Assembly: GCA_003162335.1 (NCBI GenBank)
Contig: PMMG01000057.1
Span: 991 to 47,237, forward strand
Length of the DNA stretch: 46,247 nt
Direction of reading: 5' to 3'
DNA from: Dehalococcoidia bacterium
Lineage (GTDB): Bacteria > Chloroflexota > Dehalococcoidia > Dehalococcoidales > Fen-1064
In this document: positions 38,199 through 45,964 of the stretch, one piece after another
How positions within the stretch are numbered: position 1 is the stretch's first letter
Layout: every line of letters starts with the position of its first letter
Position numbers and translations under genes: made by a program
The notes under the pieces: generated by a model
Databases searched by the model: none
Told to the model about the DNA's origin: nothing
Seen by the model: only the letters and a program-made list of their open reading frames with translations

Positions 38199-39497
38199 CT
38201 ACCGGCACGCGACGGAGACATCGGCGCAACAGATGGACGGCGTGGACATGAAGCCGCTGACCCATTTGGCATCGCTGCCGATCGCCGCGATCTTTTTCAA
38301 AAGTTGATAAACATTGCCGGAGATCATCGTATCCTTGACCCTCCCGACAATTTCGCCTTTTTCGATTTTATAGCCGAGCAGAACATTGCCGCTGAAATCA
38401 CCACCGAGGCTATTCCCCTGCCCGGCTCCCAATAACTGCTCGACGATAATACCTTCATCAATATCTTTCACCATGGCCTCAAAGCTGACATTACCGGGTT
38501 TAACTACAAAGGCATGCGGTGAAGGACCCGGCAACCCGCCCTGCCGTTGACCGTTACCGGTGCTCTTTGTTTTTGCGCGGGAGGCAGTCTGTAAATCGTA
38601 TAAAAAGTTACTGACCACACCCCTACTGATCAGCGGCGTAATCTGGCAGGGAACAGCTTCGTCATCACAGGGACGGCTGTTCGTGTTAAAAGGAACCAGG
38701 GGATTATCGTCAATTGTCAGATTAGTATCAAAAACAATTTCGCCCAGTTTTTTACCAATGGGCGACGCGCCTTCCAGCACGATCTTGCCATTAAAAGCCG
38801 ATATCAACGGAAGAATTAGCGAACCGGGAACGCCGTCCGGGGAGAAAATTACGCTCATTGAACGGGAAGTCACTTTGGCCGTATTTCTGGCTAACTCCAA
38901 CTGGCGGATAGTTGTCTTGACTATTTCATCCGTTGTCAGTATCGGGTGACAGGAACTCTGGTGGTCGCCAACAAACAACATATCGGTGCCCCGGATGCGC
39001 TGCCCTTCGATCCCCAGGCCGAAGACACTCTGCCGGAAATTGGCCTGTCCGCCGCGTGAATTCATGATTGAGAGGGTGTATGTGCCCTTGGTCACGCCAC
39101 CTTCGCAGATCACCTCGGGGGAATATTGCGTCACTTTGGCAATCAATTCTTCACCCAGCTGCGTCATTTGTTCCAGACTGACTTTTTCCACTGCCGCATC
39201 AAAAACATCGACTCTAGGAAAAGTCTTCGCCGAAGGGAATTGGAATTCTGCTTTCGTGCCGAATTCTGCGGTGGCGACCGCATCGTCGACCAACTGCTGT
39301 CTATTTTCCAAACTGGTGCTGGTGGCATAGCCGGTCTTGCCGTTTTTAATAATACGGAGCGCTACGGTCTGACTCTGTTTATGCTGAATATTTTTCAACC
39401 GGTTAGATTCAAACTGCACCGGTGTTTCTTCGCTGGTAATCATGTAAACTTCGGCTTCTTCAGCCACTTTTTTGGCGAGAGCAAGGATTTTTTCCAA
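38199..39497 (-). CDS. pmbA: TldD/PmbA-family metallopeptidase subunit (PmbA-like)
   Basis: 432 aa with family-typical N- and C-terminal domains. TTG start lies directly after the tldD stop. No HExxxH, as expected for the PmbA partner. Confidence 0.8.
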   Translation of the reverse strand: MEKILALAKKVAEEAEVYMITSEETPVQFESNRLKNIQHKQSQTVALRIIKNGKTGYATSTSLENRQQLVDDAVATAEFGTKAEFQFPSAKTFPRVDVFDAAVEKVSLEQMTQLGEELIAKVTQYSPEVICEGGVTKGTYTLSIMNSRGGQANFRQSVFGLGIEGQRIRGTDMLFVGDHQSSCHPILTTDEIVKTTIRQLELARNTAKVTSRSMSVIFSPDGVPGSLILPLISAFNGKIVLEGASPIGKKLGEIVFDTNLTIDDNPLVPFNTNSRPCDDEAVPCQITPLISRGVVSNFLYDLQTASRAKTKSTGNGQRQGGLPGPSPHAFVVKPGNVSFEAMVKDIDEGIIVEQLLGAGQGNSLGGDFSGNVLLGYKIEKGEIVGRVKDTMISGNVYQLLKKIAAIGSDAKWVSGFMSTPSICCADVSVACR

Positions 39498-40874
39498 CTA
39501 CTTACCTCCCACCAGACATTGACGGATTCGGATGTGCGGGCTGCCGTTACTAACCGGCAACGGCGATTGACCGCCTTTGCCGCAACCGCCGCCTTCATTC
39601 ATATCCAGGTCATCACCAATGGCGTCGATATTCATCAAAGTGTTAAAAACATTACCGCTGAGCATTACCGGCCGCACCATTTCGGCGATTTTACCGTTGC
39701 GGATGCGGTATGTTTCCCCGGAGGAGAATGTGAACATCTCCATGCTGGTCTGACCGCCGTACCAGTTCTTGGCATAAACACCTTCTTTGATATCGGCGAT
39801 CATATCTTCGAAAGAACATTCTCCCGGCTGGATATAGGTGTTGGTCATGCGCACGATCGGAGGATGCCGGTAATTAATGGCGCGGGCATTGCCGGTGGGT
39901 TTCTCACCCATTTTCGCAGCGGTTTCGCGGGAATGCAGCCGTCCGGTCAACTTACCTTCTCTGATAAGGTAGGTCTTCGTGGAACGTGTGCCTTCATCAT
40001 CATACTTAAAACTGCCGCGCAATCCGGGTTTCGATGCGGAATCGATGATATTTAAATGCGGCTGGCCGAAAACCTTGCCGAGCGTCATGATCTCTTTCAA
40101 CTGCGCATTTTCATAAACAAAATCTGATTCGGAAAGATGTCCGAAAGCCTCGTGCACAAACACACCGGCCAGGATCGGATCGAGGACGACCGTGTATTGC
40201 CCGCCCGTAATGGTAGGGACAGTCAACATTTCTACGGCACGCTGCGCCAGCTTTTTGATTTCCTTGTGCAGTTTGCGGACCGGGCGGAAGTCATCCCGAC
40301 TGCCTTCGCTGAGGCCAGCCTGCTGAACTTCACCGTCTTTGGCAGCCACGGCAACAGCGCGGATGGTGACATCGGCTCTTTCCTGGGTAATAAAACTACC
40401 GGTGGAATTCAGAAAAAGAGTCTTGCGATTAGCATCACCGTAGCCAAGATTTGAGGTCTGGATGCCGGAAGTGCTCCAGATGGCATCATTGTATTCATCC
40501 AGTAATGCTTTCTTTTCGGAAAGCGGGATAAGCGCCGGATTTTCTTTGATTTTCGCGACGACGTCCTCAACGATCGGCTTGGATGCATAGAACTGGCTGG
40601 TTTCTTTACCGACAAAACGTGCCTGCTTGACCGCTAATTCCACTTTATTTTGAAGGTCATCCAAATCGTTGAAACTGACAAAACCCCAGCCACCTTTGAC
40701 AAGCGCGCGGACGTTGCCCCCGATTGAGGTGGTCTTACTGATGGATTCAAGTTGTTTGCCGCGATAAGAAATGGCGCTGAATTGGCTTTCTTCCAGGTGA
40801 GCTTCGATATAATCGGCGTTTTGCTTCTTGAGAAATGCAGCCAACTGTTGTCCGACGTTCTTTAAATCTGTCAT
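39498..40874 (-). CDS. tldD: TldD metallopeptidase
   Basis: 458 aa with the zinc motif HEAFGHLSE. Confidence 0.85.
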   Translation of the reverse strand: MTDLKNVGQQLAAFLKKQNADYIEAHLEESQFSAISYRGKQLESISKTTSIGGNVRALVKGGWGFVSFNDLDDLQNKVELAVKQARFVGKETSQFYASKPIVEDVVAKIKENPALIPLSEKKALLDEYNDAIWSTSGIQTSNLGYGDANRKTLFLNSTGSFITQERADVTIRAVAVAAKDGEVQQAGLSEGSRDDFRPVRKLHKEIKKLAQRAVEMLTVPTITGGQYTVVLDPILAGVFVHEAFGHLSESDFVYENAQLKEIMTLGKVFGQPHLNIIDSASKPGLRGSFKYDDEGTRSTKTYLIREGKLTGRLHSRETAAKMGEKPTGNARAINYRHPPIVRMTNTYIQPGECSFEDMIADIKEGVYAKNWYGGQTSMEMFTFSSGETYRIRNGKIAEMVRPVMLSGNVFNTLMNIDAIGDDLDMNEGGGCGKGGQSPLPVSNGSPHIRIRQCLVGGK

Positions 40875-41044: not shown

Positions 41045-42088
41045 CTATATCAAATGAACTGATGAGGGTAAAAAGCTGATATAAACAGGGCTGCCGGTAT
41101 TGATTACCATATGCTCGAATTGCTGCCGCGGCAGCAAACATTCGAACTGCGGGGAGCAATCAACGGTAACCAGGATATTGGCGCCTTTATCTACGATTGT
41201 CTTAACGCTGCCCGGAAATGAATTGGAAATTAATATTGGTTTTTCCGCGGTCAGCTGCAGCATTTCAGGACGGATCACCGCGAATCCGGCTTTCGTGTTA
41301 TCCGATGAAGCAAATATCTCGATGGCGTCACACCTAAACACACTGCTTTTAGTGTCCCGTCCAATAACTTTCCCGCTAAAAATATTCCGTGCCATGGTGA
41401 AACGGGCTACGAATTCAGAGGACGGATGATAGAAAATCTCCGCGGGCGGGCCGACCTGCGCGATCTTCCCCTGATTGATCACCACAATGGTATCCGCCAG
41501 CGACATGGCCTCTTCAAAATCGTGGGTAACATGCAGTGTAGTAATATTGAGCTTATCGTGAATCGTTTTTAATTGAGAACGCATCTCTTCGCGGCTTTCC
41601 GCGTCAAGTGCGCTTAAAGGCTCGTCCAGTAATAATATATGCGGTCTGGTGATCAAAGCACGGGCTAGGGCGACTTTCTGGCGTTCCCCTCCGGATAGCG
41701 ACGCGGGTAACCTGTTTAACAAGGGTTGGATTTCGAACAAACCGGAGATCCAGTGCAGCGCTTCGTCAATTTGCGGCTTCGCTGTGTGTCTGACGCGTAA
41801 ACCAAATATAATATTTTCTTTGACCGTAAGATGAGGGAACAGGGAATAGTCCTGATATACGATACTGACTCCGCGCGCTTCCGGCGCAGTACCGGTGACA
41901 TCTTTACCGTCGAGGATAATCTCGCCATGACTAAGGGCATGCAGACCGGCAATCGATTCCAGTAAAACAGTTTTTCCCGCACCGGTTGGACCGAGTATAA
42001 CAGTATACTCGCCTTTGGAAACCACCAGATCGACCTGTTCCAAAAGGAAATCAGCTACTTTGACATGCAGGTTTTTTAACTCAATCAT
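41045..42088 (-). CDS. ABC transporter ATP-binding protein with C-terminal TOBE domain (molybdate/tungstate type)
   Basis: Walker A GPTGAGKT, signature LSGGERQ, Walker B LLLDEP, and a C-terminal beta-rich TOBE-like segment of about 110 aa. ATG 42088 overlaps the permease stop by 8 nt. Confidence 0.85.
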   Translation of the reverse strand: MIELKNLHVKVADFLLEQVDLVVSKGEYTVILGPTGAGKTVLLESIAGLHALSHGEIILDGKDVTGTAPEARGVSIVYQDYSLFPHLTVKENIIFGLRVRHTAKPQIDEALHWISGLFEIQPLLNRLPASLSGGERQKVALARALITRPHILLLDEPLSALDAESREEMRSQLKTIHDKLNITTLHVTHDFEEAMSLADTIVVINQGKIAQVGPPAEIFYHPSSEFVARFTMARNIFSGKVIGRDTKSSVFRCDAIEIFASSDNTKAGFAVIRPEMLQLTAEKPILISNSFPGSVKTIVDKGANILVTVDCSPQFECLLPRQQFEHMVINTGSPVYISFLPSSVHLI

Positions 42089-42905
42089 GTTTTCTATCCC
42101 GCTGTAAGACAAACCGGAAACCGATAAAAATGAACGCACAGATGATCACCAGAATAGCTGCGACTGGAACCGACTGCGTCAGCCCGTAAGTCGCAAATCG
42201 TTCGTAGATTAATGTGGACGTGACCATAGGATAATAGGTCAGAATAACCACTGCCCCGAATTCGCTGATACCGCGCGCCCACATCATCAGCGTACCTGCC
42301 AGGATACTGCGCCAGGCGAGCGGAAACGTAACGCGGTAAAATACCTGCCACGGTGAAGCTCCCAGTGTACGCGCCACGTTCTCCAGCCGCACATCGATCT
42401 TACGGAAACCGTCTTTGGCAGAGTTGATCAGAAACGGCACGCTGACAAATAGCATGGCGATTACGATACCCGCTAACGAATCGACAAAAGAAATACCAAT
42501 CGCATTAAACCATTTCCCCAATAAAAAATTCCGTCCGAAGACAAAAAGCAGCGCAATACCGGCAGCAGTATGCGGCACAACAATGGGCAAATCAATGAGA
42601 CCTTCAACGACACCCTTTAAGGGGAAATTATTGCGCGCCAGCAGGTAAGCCAGCGGCACTCCCAGCAGAAACCCGATCGCAGCGGTGATCAGAGCGGCAT
42701 ACAGGGTGAGTAAAATTGATTGCATAACGGAGGGATCAAGCAGGGCTTGCCACAATTCGCTTTTATCTGAAAACAAGATCAGCTTGGCCAGTGGAATAAA
42801 TATAAACAACACGATCAACAGGCTGAGGATACTGAAAACAGCCAGCAAACGGTGGCGGCCTAACCAACTGCATACGGAGTGTATGATTTTTGAGATAACT
42901 GCCAA
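42081..42905 (-). CDS. ABC transporter permease (ModB/WtpB-like)
   Basis: 274 aa with 5-6 TMS. The EAA-type loop reads ENVARTLGASPWQVFYRVTFPLA. TTG start with AGGAGA RBS. Confidence 0.85.
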   Translation of the reverse strand: MAVISKIIHSVCSWLGRHRLLAVFSILSLLIVLFIFIPLAKLILFSDKSELWQALLDPSVMQSILLTLYAALITAAIGFLLGVPLAYLLARNNFPLKGVVEGLIDLPIVVPHTAAGIALLFVFGRNFLLGKWFNAIGISFVDSLAGIVIAMLFVSVPFLINSAKDGFRKIDVRLENVARTLGASPWQVFYRVTFPLAWRSILAGTLMMWARGISEFGAVVILTYYPMVTSTLIYERFATYGLTQSVPVAAILVIICAFIFIGFRFVLQRDRKHD

Positions 42906-42914
42906 CCTTTTCTC

Positions 42915-43991
42915 CTAACGAAACAATGGTTTGAGAGAAGCAGGAAGTGCATTAATGTTATCACATCGAGGAGGTACCAATTCAGGCTGATTAGCATTCT
43001 GAAAAATACTTTGACCTTCGGCGCTCAGAACAAATTGAATGAATTTTTCCGCGGCGCCCGGATTTTTAGAATTATTGGCAATGGTCATGCCGTAGATAAT
43101 TGGTAATCCCTGGAATACAGGATTTACCGTTTTAAAACGCTGATAATCCGCTTTGACAACCACTTTGCCATAGTTTTGCGCTAAATTAGCATCAGACAGG
43201 TTGATTTCCGGTGGCAATTCCAGATATTGCAATCCATCCTGAATGACGGTACTTTTATAATCGATAGTATAATCAATATCCCCCGATTGAAGTAACGCAA
43301 GCAGTTCCATATGAGCGCCGCGCAGCACCATATGGGGGTCGGTTGGTTCTAATAATTCCGGGATATGGATAGTTGATGTGCCGTTAATATCGTTAGAAGT
43401 GATGGGCATGGAAAAATACTTGCCGATTGTATTATCCATGATATTACCGGTATGGTAATAAGATTCGGCGAGTTTCAATGCCATCAGGTTCCGATAACCA
43501 ACAGCATCCATGCGGGGGTCGGCGAATCCGAAGCGGACATCCGGGCGAGCGATTATCTGATACCAGTTACCGGCATTAAGTTCAGAGGCATATTTACTTT
43601 TGGAAGTGTACGCCAGTACCAGCTGATTAGTTGCCGGCATAATATCCCAACTGGCATAGGGTTTGCCGTCCGGCATTTTGGTCTGATACATCAACATCGG
43701 TATCAGCGAATAATCAGCCACCGCAACCACGTCCACATCCTGGCCGAGTTCCGTGACCTGCCGGATTACCTGAATACTACCGTGAGCCTGCATCTCCACT
43801 TGAATATCGGGGTTAGCCTGTTCAAATTCCTTTTTAACCTGGGAAAAAGGGACCATTAAACTGTCGGCTTCAAACACGACCAGCTTTGTTTTTCCGGTAC
43901 CGGTAACTCCGGAGGAAGGTGAAGAGTTGGTGCATGCCGCCATTCCGGTCAATAAACTCGCGAGCAGGCAAATCAGCACCAGTCTCTTCAC
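42915..43991 (-). CDS. Tungstate/molybdate-type periplasmic binding lipoprotein (long, WtpA-like)
   Basis: 358 aa with a GTG start and lipobox LLTGMAAC. The size and the VFEADSL...HGS... layout resemble WtpA rather than the short ModA or TupA. It forms an operon with the permease and TOBE ATPase. Confidence 0.65.
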   Translation of the reverse strand: MKRLVLICLLASLLTGMAACTNSSPSSGVTGTGKTKLVVFEADSLMVPFSQVKKEFEQANPDIQVEMQAHGSIQVIRQVTELGQDVDVVAVADYSLIPMLMYQTKMPDGKPYASWDIMPATNQLVLAYTSKSKYASELNAGNWYQIIARPDVRFGFADPRMDAVGYRNLMALKLAESYYHTGNIMDNTIGKYFSMPITSNDINGTSTIHIPELLEPTDPHMVLRGAHMELLALLQSGDIDYTIDYKSTVIQDGLQYLELPPEINLSDANLAQNYGKVVVKADYQRFKTVNPVFQGLPIIYGMTIANNSKNPGAAEKFIQFVLSAEGQSIFQNANQPELVPPRCDNINALPASLKPLFR

Positions 43992-44035: not shown

Positions 44036-44641
44036 TTAAGGTGCGGCAACGACATCGATCTTACTTAATAACTTTGCCCATATACTACCGTCAGAAACCA
44101 GGCTCTCACTGGAAAGGAGACCTACTTCGAGGGGACCGGTAGAACTGTCCAGGGCAGCGCCATTGGCAAAATAGACTATAGCTAATGTAGGCTTCGCGGT
44201 GGGCGTGGCAGGATTTCCGGACGCATCGTACATAGTAAAACCGCCGCTGGTGATCTGGTCGTAAGAAACTGTGGAAGTGTAGCCATCTGTGCCCGTGAAT
44301 TTGACGATCTGACCACTGGCAACGCCGCCGACAGCATTCAATAAGTCGATCAGAGCAACGCCTTTATAGGGAATAGGGCCGGTAACAACACCCTTCTTGT
44401 TCTTGGTACCGCCGTTGCCGGTAACTGATTTCATTGCCTGTAAATCAGCCATTGAATAGGACTTTGTCTTGCTGCCGCTGGTAACCGTCAGGACAACCGG
44501 TCCGGCCGGAGTTTGGGCTACCGTCGTGGTAGTAGTGGTGGTAGTGGTGGTTGTATCGGTGGTGGTTGAACTGCAGGATGACATGATGATCATCGCTGCC
44601 AGCAACACGCCAAGACCTAACCATGTTACAAGTTTTTTCAA
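44036..44641 (-). CDS. Lipoprotein with poly-Thr linker and one Cys-less sulfite-oxidase/YedY-fold-like domain (function unknown)
   Basis: TTG start with GGAGG RBS. Lipobox MSSC, then a run of 11 Thr. The domain signature is GPIPYKGVALIDLL...TDGY...LAIVYFANGAALDSSTGPLEVG...SIWAKLLSKIDV. Confidence 0.6.
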   Translation of the reverse strand: MKKLVTWLGLGVLLAAMIIMSSCSSTTTDTTTTTTTTTTTVAQTPAGPVVLTVTSGSKTKSYSMADLQAMKSVTGNGGTKNKKGVVTGPIPYKGVALIDLLNAVGGVASGQIVKFTGTDGYTSTVSYDQITSGGFTMYDASGNPATPTAKPTLAIVYFANGAALDSSTGPLEVGLLSSESLVSDGSIWAKLLSKIDVVAAP

Positions 44642-44685
44642 TTTATTCCTCCATTTTATTATTTACATTTATTTTTATTTGTTGC

Positions 44686-45711
44686 TTATTTAGTCGTGGC
44701 GGTAGTAATGGTCGGAAAGACCAGCTTGATTTTATTGATCATGCCGATCTGGTGCTGGGCATCAACAGCGCTGCCGACGAGCGCCAGCGGCCATTGAGTG
44801 CTCGGCAGGGGGTTGCCGTCAATCTCGTATGCCAGGATGATGTTATCATTTCGTTTTACCTGCTGCGAAGTAAGCGAAATCATGTCCCCGTTAGAGTTTG
44901 CAACATGTACTTCATAACCGGCATCGGCGGCGGCATTGCTGTAGGACATGTCTCCGTTTGCATCGTCTACATTACCGACCAGGTACCAGAGCGGGATGCC
45001 CAGGTAAACATGCCCCTGCGCATCTGTCCAGGTTTTGCCGTGACATCCCGGCGCGGCGCCCGATTCAAATGTCGATTTATCCATGCTTTGTGTTATTGCT
45101 CCCTGCAGACTGATCGTCCAGGACGCCTGCATGGTAATTACTTCTACTTTCTGCGCCCATTTTATCCACCAGTGACCGTCAGTGACCTGGCCGGGCGCCA
45201 TAATGCCGATACGTAAAGGACCGATTGAATCATCGATCGGGTTACCGTCTTTTTCGTAAGCAATAAAAACGGTGATCGGACCGGCAGAGTTAACTTCTTT
45301 GCCTGTAGTGCTATCATAAGTGGGGAACTCAGCGCCTTTAACAACCTGGTTGTATGACATCGTCATCGAATAGCCGTCTTTCGCGGAGATTCGCACTGCG
45401 TTATTTGAGGTCATGCCCCCAACTGATTTGAGAATATCGGTGAGCGCTACGCCTTTGTAAGCGTAAGGGCCTTCGATCGTGCCGCTGCTGGTAATATCGC
45501 CGGTTGAACCGGAAAGCACGGGCAACGCTTTAATGTCAGCCAGACTTAAAGTTTTTGTCTGGGAACCGCTAACAACTGTCAGTGACGCTGCTTTTGCCGT
45601 GGGAGAAACGGTGACGGTCTTGGTGACACATCCCGTTAACAATGATGCCGTTAGCGCCAGAACCAGACCGAGACCGACGAGCGGTGGTAATAGTCTAAAC
45701 GATCTTTTCAT
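44686..45711 (-). CDS. Two-domain paralogue of the preceding lipoprotein (function unknown)
   Basis: ATG 45711 (AAGGGAG RBS) gives MKRSFRLLPPLVGLGLVLALTASLLTGC (lipobox). Domain 1 is clearly homologous to the 201-aa protein (GPYAYKGVALTDIL...KDGY...FIAYEKDGNPIDDSIGPLRIG...HWWIKWAQKVEV). Domain 2 shows the same fold pattern. The track's extra 42 N-terminal residues translate the leader RNA. Confidence 0.65.
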   Translation of the reverse strand: MKRSFRLLPPLVGLGLVLALTASLLTGCVTKTVTVSPTAKAASLTVVSGSQTKTLSLADIKALPVLSGSTGDITSSGTIEGPYAYKGVALTDILKSVGGMTSNNAVRISAKDGYSMTMSYNQVVKGAEFPTYDSTTGKEVNSAGPITVFIAYEKDGNPIDDSIGPLRIGIMAPGQVTDGHWWIKWAQKVEVITMQASWTISLQGAITQSMDKSTFESGAAPGCHGKTWTDAQGHVYLGIPLWYLVGNVDDANGDMSYSNAAADAGYEVHVANSNGDMISLTSQQVKRNDNIILAYEIDGNPLPSTQWPLALVGSAVDAQHQIGMINKIKLVFPTITTATTK

Positions 45712-45746: not shown

Positions 45747-45774
45747 AAAAAAAGCGCCCCCGAAAGGAGGCGCC
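45747..45774 (-). terminator. Intrinsic terminator (expression platform) in the operon leader
   Basis: Minus-strand RNA is GCGCCUCC-UUUC-GGGGGCGC followed by U7. It lies 36 nt upstream of ATG 45711. Confidence 0.75.
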
Positions 45775-45779
45775 AAACA

Positions 45780-45925
45780 GCAAGATATGCCTGAACCGTC
45801 TCTCCTTTCCAAACACGGGAGGCGCAGGCGTTTTCACCTGTGCCCTCGGGACTTATTCAGTCCGGCGGTTGACATTCCGTAGCCAACGGCATTAGGAATG
45901 ACAACTCGAAGAGCTTTTTAAATGA
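45780..45925 (-). promoter_or_regulatory. Candidate Moco/Tuco (molybdenum/tungsten cofactor) riboswitch
   Basis: Minus-strand RNA contains ...GUCCCGAGGGCACAGGUGAAAACGCCUGCGCCUCCCGUGUUUGGAAAGGAGAGAC.... The CCGAG, GCCUCCC and GGAAAGGAG blocks are those I recall as the conserved core of the Moco RNA motif. It sits between a consensus promoter and a terminator, upstream of a tungstate/molybdate uptake operon. Confidence 0.55.
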
Positions 45926-45935
45926 CTCGTTCTTG

Positions 45936-45964
45936 ATTCTAACAAACAACTGATATAGTGTCAA
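45936..45964 (-). promoter_or_regulatory. Sigma-70-type promoter (TTGACA, 17 nt spacer, TAGAAT) on the minus strand
   Basis: The reverse complement reads ttgaca-ctatatcagttgtttgt-tagaat. The -35 is at 45964-45959 and the -10 at 45941-45936. Confidence 0.6.

Follow-up and report, generated by a model that had tools for sequence, protein, structure and literature searches.

Introduction

Known periplasmic enzymes of the sulfite oxidase (SUOX) fold receive their molybdenum cofactor (Moco) in the cytoplasm and are then exported by the twin-arginine translocation (Tat) system. A secreted minimal form of the fold, about 140 amino acids (aa) long and without the molybdenum-ligating cysteine, occurs in PruR (Agrobacterium Atu3496 and homologues in Vibrio and Klebsiella; structures 7kos, 7kou, 7kom, 7kp2, and 7rkb), a single-domain protein of Proteobacteria that has Pro-Trp at the cysteine position, binds tetrahydromonapterin, and is encoded with the cyclic di-GMP enzyme DcpA. 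PruR acts through a binding partner protein outside the cytoplasm (PMC11194511). The present study analyzes two lipoprotein genes, here called A and B, at the head of a tungstate/molybdate transporter operon (wtpABC) of a Dehalococcoidia bacterium, for whose products PruR is the best match in both structure and sequence. The window, i.e. the whole stretch of DNA analyzed, comprises 46,247 nucleotides (nt) of contig PMMG01000057.1 (assembly GCA_003162335.1, positions 991–47,237); all coordinates are those of the window, and the operon lies on its minus strand. The evidence makes it probable that A and B are extracytoplasmic, membrane-tethered accessory partners of WtpABC which capture tungsten or molybdenum (W/Mo) or present it to WtpA.

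As far as is known, W/Mo uptake needs no component beyond the binding protein, its permease, and the ATPase. Additional binders have precedents in other systems. ZinT/YodA, the ZinT-like domain of AdcA, and the polyhistidine-triad proteins that accompany AdcAII are auxiliary binders serving the substrate-binding protein (SBP) of zinc ATP-binding cassette (ABC) importers; they are co-regulated with the importer, free or fused to the SBP, and metal binding by ZinT is proven. A and B may be analogous to these in co-regulation, in the free-or-fused pattern, and in a predicted contact with the SBP, but their fold is unrelated, and the metal of the zinc auxiliaries is cationic. In the NEAT haem relay of Gram-positive bacteria (IsdH/B/A/C to IsdE), proteins with one to five tandem domains, encoded with an ABC importer, pass their ligand to a lipoprotein SBP. 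Tandem copies of a small surface domain beside an ABC importer are a possible parallel here; fold and ligand are different, and a relay between the domains of A and B would be hypothesis only.

No paper was found that describes such proteins with W/Mo transporters, and the PruR papers are silent on such a link. The nearest statement in print is a passing remark in the Pelobacter carbinolicus genome paper, that channels of the outer membrane located close to “molybdopterin-binding proteins” or to molybdopterin riboswitches “may transport metals” (PMC3543383). A and B represent conserved and apparently undescribed WtpABC partners, present in some archaea and in many anaerobic bacteria. An additional conserved component at the surface would mean a new step in W/Mo acquisition in Chloroflexota, Atribacterota, Actinomycetota, Hadarchaeota, and others. 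The anaerobes that bear A and B rely on W/Mo enzymes and live in metal-poor, often sulfidic habitats. If the proposal is true, it would also correct the widespread misannotation of these proteins as “molybdopterin-dependent oxidoreductase” or “YedY-like”, and it would give a second function to the newly recognised cofactor-less SUOX-fold binders of the PruR class.

Results and Discussion

Gene order and linkage to W/Mo transport

The genes stand behind a riboswitch for Moco or the tungsten cofactor (Tuco) in the order A, B, wtpA, wtpB-like, wtpC-like:

45786..45923, minus strand, Moco/Tuco riboswitch aptamer RF01055, full length 1–135 (84.7 bits against a gathering score of 36, E 2.7e-19)
44686..45711, minus strand, gene A, 341-aa lipoprotein with two predicted SUOX-fold domains, N and C (A-type; Pfam PF00174 32.7 bits; AlphaFold2 predicted local distance difference test, pLDDT, 87.9)
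44036..44641, minus strand, gene B, lipoprotein of 201 aa with one predicted SUOX-fold domain on a Thr-rich tether (B-type, GPL-E variant; AlphaFold2 pLDDT 85.0)
42915..43991, minus strand, wtpA, tungstate/molybdate substrate-binding lipoprotein (TIGR03730 311.8 bits against a cut-off of 242.75)
42081..42905, minus strand, wtpB-like permease (NF040839 312 bits, its best match but under the cut-off of 340; PF00528)
41045..42139, minus strand, wtpC-like ATPase with TOBE domain (NF040840 361.8 bits, its best match, cut-off 440; PF00005 and TOBE)

Intergenic gaps from A through B and wtpA to wtpB measure 44, 44, and 9 nt, after which wtpB and wtpC overlap. The longest open reading frame (ORF) of gene A begins within the riboswitch; the ATG at 45711, also the start used in the initial annotation, gives A a proper lipoprotein signal. 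That annotation, made from sequence alone, had taken A and B for exported lipoproteins, the first two genes behind a riboswitch candidate and ahead of WtpA-like, permease, and ATPase genes, and all of this is borne out by the matches above and by the lipobox cysteines described below.

The same cassette of A, B, and wtpABC behind a riboswitch recurs in five genomes of the same genus or family (G004, G001, G007, G026, and G014), in the last of which A and B are fused into a single protein of 528 aa. In four further lineages (G188, G279, G303, and G054) an A-type gene lies directly upstream of wtpA. A Moco riboswitch is directly upstream in the source genome, in the five related genomes, and in G188, G279, and G303.

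A cross-phylum scan, with one genome per species and loci picked by the A-type alignment alone, yielded 80 loci from at least eight phyla, in the groups Dehalococcoidia, Anaerolineae, Thermoflexia, Caldilineae, Atribacterota, Actinomycetota (Thermoleophilia, Gaiellales, and Acidimicrobiia), Bacillota, Acetothermia, Cloacimonas, Phycisphaerae, and the archaeal Hadarchaeota. ORF calling recovered the A-type gene at 77 of these, and in 60 of the 77 wtpA lay at most 1.5 kb downstream on the same strand. The remainder comprised one A-WtpA fusion (L161:4968-7157, 729 aa, TIGR03730 268.5 bits), one locus with wtpA just upstream, six with wtpB/C downstream, six cut by a contig end, and three without wtp genes. 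A covariance model built from 21 aptamers placed a riboswitch upstream of 22 of the 77 wider loci. Among 401 genomes sampled from the phylum the domain was present in seven, all of which hold wtpA (one copy is cut by a contig end), while true WtpA, above the curated cut-off, occurred in only 15; this co-occurrence is a pattern and not a statistic, as kin are not independent. Consistent linkage of orthologues to W/Mo transport, which the initial annotation had named as a check, was therefore found, in the 60 of 77 loci with wtpA, in fusions, and in riboswitches of many lineages.

Fusion to other binding proteins widens this association. In the source genome (C27:8310-9626, TIGR01256 201 bits) and in three relatives, ModA carries a B-type domain at its N-terminus, and modBC come next. 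A B-type domain is likewise fused N-terminally to a Peripla_BP_2 protein whose gene precedes those for a FecCD permease and an ATPase; such operons lie behind riboswitches in G001, and another is on contig C137 of the source genome. In G006, and in a second case at L164, a TupA-like protein carries the domain at its C-terminus and is followed by tupBC. In the maximum-likelihood tree the A N-domains formed one clade (support 100/98) and all SBP-fused copies another (94/90), which means that a single B-like lineage was shuffled onto various binding proteins. G-P-L-Glu occurs in 19 of the 23 B-type and SBP-fused copies as against G-P-L-Arg in the A N-domain and in SUOX enzymes, a split in sequence that suggests two functional subtypes.

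Export, paralogy, and fold

Both products are Sec-type lipoproteins. A has a lipobox with Cys28, and B, which starts at a TTG, has a lipobox with Cys23 followed by a run of threonines. The domains of the two proteins are:

45121..45594, minus strand, A N-terminal domain, aa 40–197 (PruR match, Z 15.7)
44707..45120, minus strand, A C-terminal domain, a diverged copy, aa 198–335 (by hhalign)
44039-44506, minus strand, B domain, aa 46–201

Identity between the A N-domain and B is 40% across 150 aa (E 1e-33). A does contain a second copy, though a diverged one: plain BLAST gave a match of only 22 residues, while hhalign of the C-domain against the domain profile gave 94% probability (E 1.3e-7, 89 columns), and the C-domain is without the Tyr of the DGY motif and without the W-x-x-K motif. 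The earlier proposal of paralogous domains, one in B and two in A, accordingly holds with a diverged second copy.

Against Pfam PF00174, A is above the gathering score of 24, and B alone (18.1 bits) is under it. Current database names for A and B are molybdopterin-dependent oxidoreductase, YedY-like, or hypothetical, and NCBIfam holds no curated family naming them, giving weak partial matches only. In a sequence search with a profile of 28 domain copies the top Protein Data Bank match was PruR 7kom (E 0.0022). The A N-domain model matched PruR 7kom at Z 15.7 (root-mean-square deviation 2.1 Å, 125 of 134 residues), chicken sulfite oxidase at Z 15.5 (2.2 Å, 137 aa), and SoxC at Z 15.4. The B model, in a search independent of Foldseek, matched PruR 7rkb at Z 15.3 (131 of 146 residues aligned), SorA at Z 14.8, SoxC at Z 14.7, and YedY at Z 11.0, with SUOX enzymes spanning Z 10–15 and the next unrelated fold at Z 4.8. 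The models thus assign the SUOX/PruR fold to the A N-domain and, unambiguously, to B, and no other fold stands out. For the A C-domain there was no SUOX match in the fold lists of A, which are dominated by the N-domain; 9a64, a YlaL model, scored highest for it, with Z 10.8. These results agree with the resemblance to the Moco domain of sulfite oxidase and YedY seen in the first reading, and the structure and profile searches proposed there led to no unrelated family of known function.

The likeness to the SUOX Moco domains (SorA, SorT, SoxC, chicken sulfite oxidase, and YedY/MsrP; PF00174) extends over the predicted fold, at Z 11–15.5, and over the motifs Y-x-x-(N/D)-G, G-P-L-R, and W-x-K. 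Unlike those enzymes, A and B have a shorter hairpin, lack dimerisation or redox-partner domains, are exported by Sec and not by Tat, and lack the Mo-ligand Cys in the A N-domain and in B. A twin-arginine motif was found in none of the 77 A-type orthologues, of which 61 have a Sec-type lipobox and the remainder Sec signal peptides or an N-terminal helix. Because they have no Tat motif, whereas SUOX enzymes are exported by Tat, A-type proteins cannot gain Moco in the usual way. Nor would the module be a normal Moco enzyme domain, since Sec exports it unfolded and neither the A N-domain nor B has the Mo-ligand Cys.

Conserved residues

Conservation was assessed in an alignment of 78 A-type sequences from at least eight phyla, and residues were placed by hidden Markov model (HMM) and hhalign registers and not by structural superposition. 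Conserved at 95–100% in the A N-domain are Ser75-x-Gly77, Asp112-Gly113-Tyr114, Arg167, His180, Trp181, Lys184, and Trp185, with Ser75-x-Gly77, at the tip of a hairpin, invariant in 77 of 78. The hairpin Cys that ligates molybdenum in SUOX enzymes is absent from the A N-domain and from B. By HMM alignment to PruR, the tip equivalent to this Cys falls at Ser75-Gly77 in A and at about Gly84 in B, some 8–10 residues beyond the TGNGG and SGSTG pentapeptides to which the first reading had assigned it. The description of both proteins as “Cys-less” in that reading stands for B, whose 201 aa contain no Cys after that of the lipid anchor, and for the A N-domain. It fails for the A C-domain, in which Cys223-His224 is kept in 77 of the 78 sequences, together with Trp228, Asp230, Gly238, and Pro308-Leu309. 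In the alignment register Cys223-His224 sits just before the hairpin that bears the Mo-ligand Cys in SUOX enzymes.

This near-invariant pair beside the hairpin, along with the score of A above the PF00174 threshold and the name given in public annotation, is what could be cited for A and B as genuine extracytoplasmic molybdo- or tungsto-enzymes with Cys223 as the metal ligand. We find this scarcely credible: besides the want of a Tat signal in all 77 orthologues, which are mostly Sec lipoproteins where known periplasmic SUOX enzymes are Tat substrates, the very domain that bears the Cys no longer has the DGY Tyr or W-x-x-K, no redox partner gene (cytochrome or YedZ) is present, and neither one to ten copies per protein nor fusion to binding proteins is enzyme-like.

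Comparison with PruR in the HMM register aligns the N-x-Y pterin-contact motif with D-G-Y and shows the C-terminal Trp to be kept, while the Pro-Trp position of PruR is Gly in the A N-domain and B and Thr-Trp228 in the A C-domain. A and/or B could, on this basis, be PruR-like sensors that bind free extracellular pterin, modulate WtpA or the transporter, and so regulate uptake while carrying no metal. PruR is the nearest solved relative, and its binding of a periplasmic partner protein (PMC11194511) would be paralleled by the predicted binding of A to WtpA. We consider such a role very unlikely, however, as the Pro-Trp motif is missing from the A N-domain and B, the DGY Tyr varies in the SBP-fused copies, and no DcpA-type signalling partner is encoded at the locus. 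The setting is not that of a DcpA-type diguanylate cyclase/phosphodiesterase operon, the neighbours being wtpABC both at this locus and at no fewer than 60 of the 77. Pterin sensing also hardly accounts for fusions with binding proteins of four kinds, all of the oxyanion or metal type. A and B further differ from PruR in having one to three domains (up to ten in relatives), a Ser-x-Gly hairpin tip, Moco riboswitch control, and genes that are encoded with or fused to those of W/Mo binding proteins.

Predicted complex of A with WtpA

Residues 33–358 of WtpA (54-row alignment) and 40–341 of A (54 rows from the same loci) were docked. The interaction prediction score from aligned errors (ipSAE) was 0.71 (0.68, 0.71, and 0.71 in the three runs), and the highest-scoring of three controls gave 0.00; the runs share at least 72% of contacts, and pLDDT of the partner is at least 87. 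The predicted interface on A is the conserved face of the N-domain (residues 74–77, 112–117, 119, 178, and 180), and on WtpA it includes residues 43, 46, 69–71, 158, 160–162, 211–213, 223–226, and 283–287, among them the family-invariant Gly71, Asp158, Arg160, Asp162, Pro211, Arg224, and Arg285. The conserved face of A is thus predicted to dock onto the ligand cleft of WtpA. In archaeal WtpA/ModA, carboxylates at such positions, which we take to be equivalent to those of the present WtpA, complete octahedral coordination of the oxyanion; if this equivalence is right, A would cap the mouth of the cleft. We know of no solved complex of this kind, and the docking is therefore unlikely to be recall by the model.

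That A and B are accessory partners of WtpABC, as the initial annotation had suggested for W/Mo uptake, draws on fold, export type, conserved gene order, SBP fusions, riboswitch control, and a docking prediction tested against controls; ligand binding and hand-over we infer. A and B would be produced under the same Moco/Tuco riboswitch as WtpABC when cofactor is scarce. Each would be built from a minimal SUOX-fold module of the PruR type, and the former cofactor face of the A N-domain (Ser75-Gly77, Asp112-Gly113-Tyr114, Asp178, and His180) would dock at the mouth of the WtpA cleft, where A, probably with B, would capture or present W/Mo species to WtpA. The ligand may be the oxyanion itself, with A and B as an antenna raising its local concentration; it may be thio-metalates or pterin-bound metal, or free pterin; or there may be none, with the face a protein interface only.

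A more specific form of this proposal is that A and B let anaerobes use W/Mo forms closed to WtpA and release them as oxyanion while capping the cleft. Candidates would be thiotungstate or thiomolybdate in sulfidic water, or metal on released pterin-dithiolene cofactor, bound in the former Moco pocket (Ser75, Asp112/Tyr114, Arg167, His180, Trp181, and Lys184) and at Cys223-His224. Although we regard this as unlikely, it is conceivable, and if true it would mean that a new extracellular trace-metal step had arisen from a disabled molybdoenzyme fold.

Several observations weigh against accessory partnership in W/Mo uptake or narrow its scope. The ipSAE is the model's own confidence and not a measurement, and its calibration, in which 58 of 80 solved complexes and 2 of 110 mismatched pairs attained the mark of 0.71, is only rough here, since custom alignments were used. 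The strong conservation of the N-domain face may reflect a protein interface alone, with no small ligand. Co-transcription of A, B, and wtpABC we infer from the short gaps and the single riboswitch only. Nine of the 15 genomes with true WtpA are without A/B-type proteins, and therefore A and B are not required for transport as such. About ten orphan copies of the domain stand away from transporters in related genomes, several of them adjoining aldehyde dehydrogenase genes (L061, L070, and L072). Lastly, to judge from the gene and domain settings described below (S-layer, cohesin/dockerin, CARDB, and energy-coupling factor, ECF, transporter), the module does not appear always to be tied to W/Mo.

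The wider domain family

A full-library profile search returned 1162 clusters (E up to 0.001), whose proteins have from one to ten tandem copies of the domain and of which few are fused to binding proteins. The domain is also combined with SLH, cohesin/dockerin, CARDB, Big_1, and FmdE domains (P0298, P0170, P0214, and P0197 are among the examples). Judged by these architectures, the module is a general extracytoplasmic building block and the A-type architecture the form tied to wtpA.

The same surface domains, together with the variable tandem copy number and the Thr-rich tethers, raise the possibility that A and B bind no ligand and are spacers or scaffolds setting the height or clustering of binding lipoproteins under the S-layer of the wall-less Dehalococcoidia. 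Mere spacing would not be expected to show specificity for W/Mo binding proteins or control by Moco riboswitches, and the invariant polar face (Ser75, Asp112, Tyr114, Arg167, His180, Trp181, and Lys184) persists across very different envelopes, including those of diderm Atribacterota and of archaea, all of which renders a scaffold improbable.

In two cases (L076:5437-14758 and the P0169 context) the gene for a protein of 9–10 repeats precedes genes for a Metallophos phosphoesterase and for an ECF transporter resembling ykoEDC (PF09819, double ABC_tran, and CbiQ), with no wtp genes in view; SUOX-like repeats, Metallophos, and ECF transporter make up a second conserved cassette for the domain family. 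Another gene of the family adjoins mobB. In the P0169 context, which belongs to an unrelated genome, a TldD/PmbA pair is found at a distance of a few kb from the SUOX-like gene with 9 repeats, and the window, too, has such a pair, just downstream of wtpC (38199-40874, minus strand); this shared proximity is probably coincidence.

Further features of the operon and its relatives

Two more elements lie around the aptamer, the first of them upstream of it:

45936..45964, minus strand, promoter-like site TTGACA-17-TAGAAT, by consensus scan (11 of 12 matches and a TG extension; a pattern match only)
45753..45774, minus strand, terminator-like hairpin and U-tract between aptamer and gene A (9-pair stem with 7 G-C, then a T-run)

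The hairpin is likely the expression platform of the riboswitch. The longest ORF of wtpC overlaps wtpB by 59 nt, and its WtpC family match starts at residue 18; translation probably begins about 51 nt inside this ORF, near 42088.

At loci of Anaerolineae, Acetothermia, and Dehalococcoidia (L110, L113, L119, L125, and L147) the A-type gene stands between two WtpA-like genes, the upstream one being unusually long at 450–530 aa.

Cofactor synthesis and other riboswitch units

The source genome encodes MoaA, MoaC, and MoeA together on contig C40. MoaE (PF02391) was not found in this assembly, which is 86% complete, so that an assembly gap is possible. Salvage of Moco as a necessity was considered and rejected, as the genome encodes MoaA, MoaC, and MoeA for its own cofactor synthesis; use of external cofactor as a source of metal may be compatible with that synthesis.

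The operon aptamer is one of eight RF01055 aptamers in the source genome. Genes for NAD-type aldehyde dehydrogenases (PF00171, E about 1e-160) stand directly behind Moco riboswitches at C96:13794-15491, C96:19942-20500, and C26:6187-9394, and two such units on C96 flank a set of xanthine-dehydrogenase-like genes. The aldehyde dehydrogenases may stand in for W/Mo aldehyde oxidoreductases as cofactor-independent enzymes that are switched on under Moco scarcity. At C9:466-5748 (L024) two tandem Moco riboswitches (466–605 and 657–798) precede genes for a FecCD permease, an ATPase, a Peripla_BP_2 lipoprotein, a methyltransferase, and a WtpA-like SBP_bac_11 protein without a signal peptide. By its gene content this unit would be a type-II (siderophore/MolABC-like) importer under cofactor control, in which the signal-less WtpA-like protein is possibly a cytoplasmic W/Mo-binding protein. 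Comparable WtpA-like genes without a signal are also found beside the domain-Peripla_BP_2 operons of G001 (L068 and L073).

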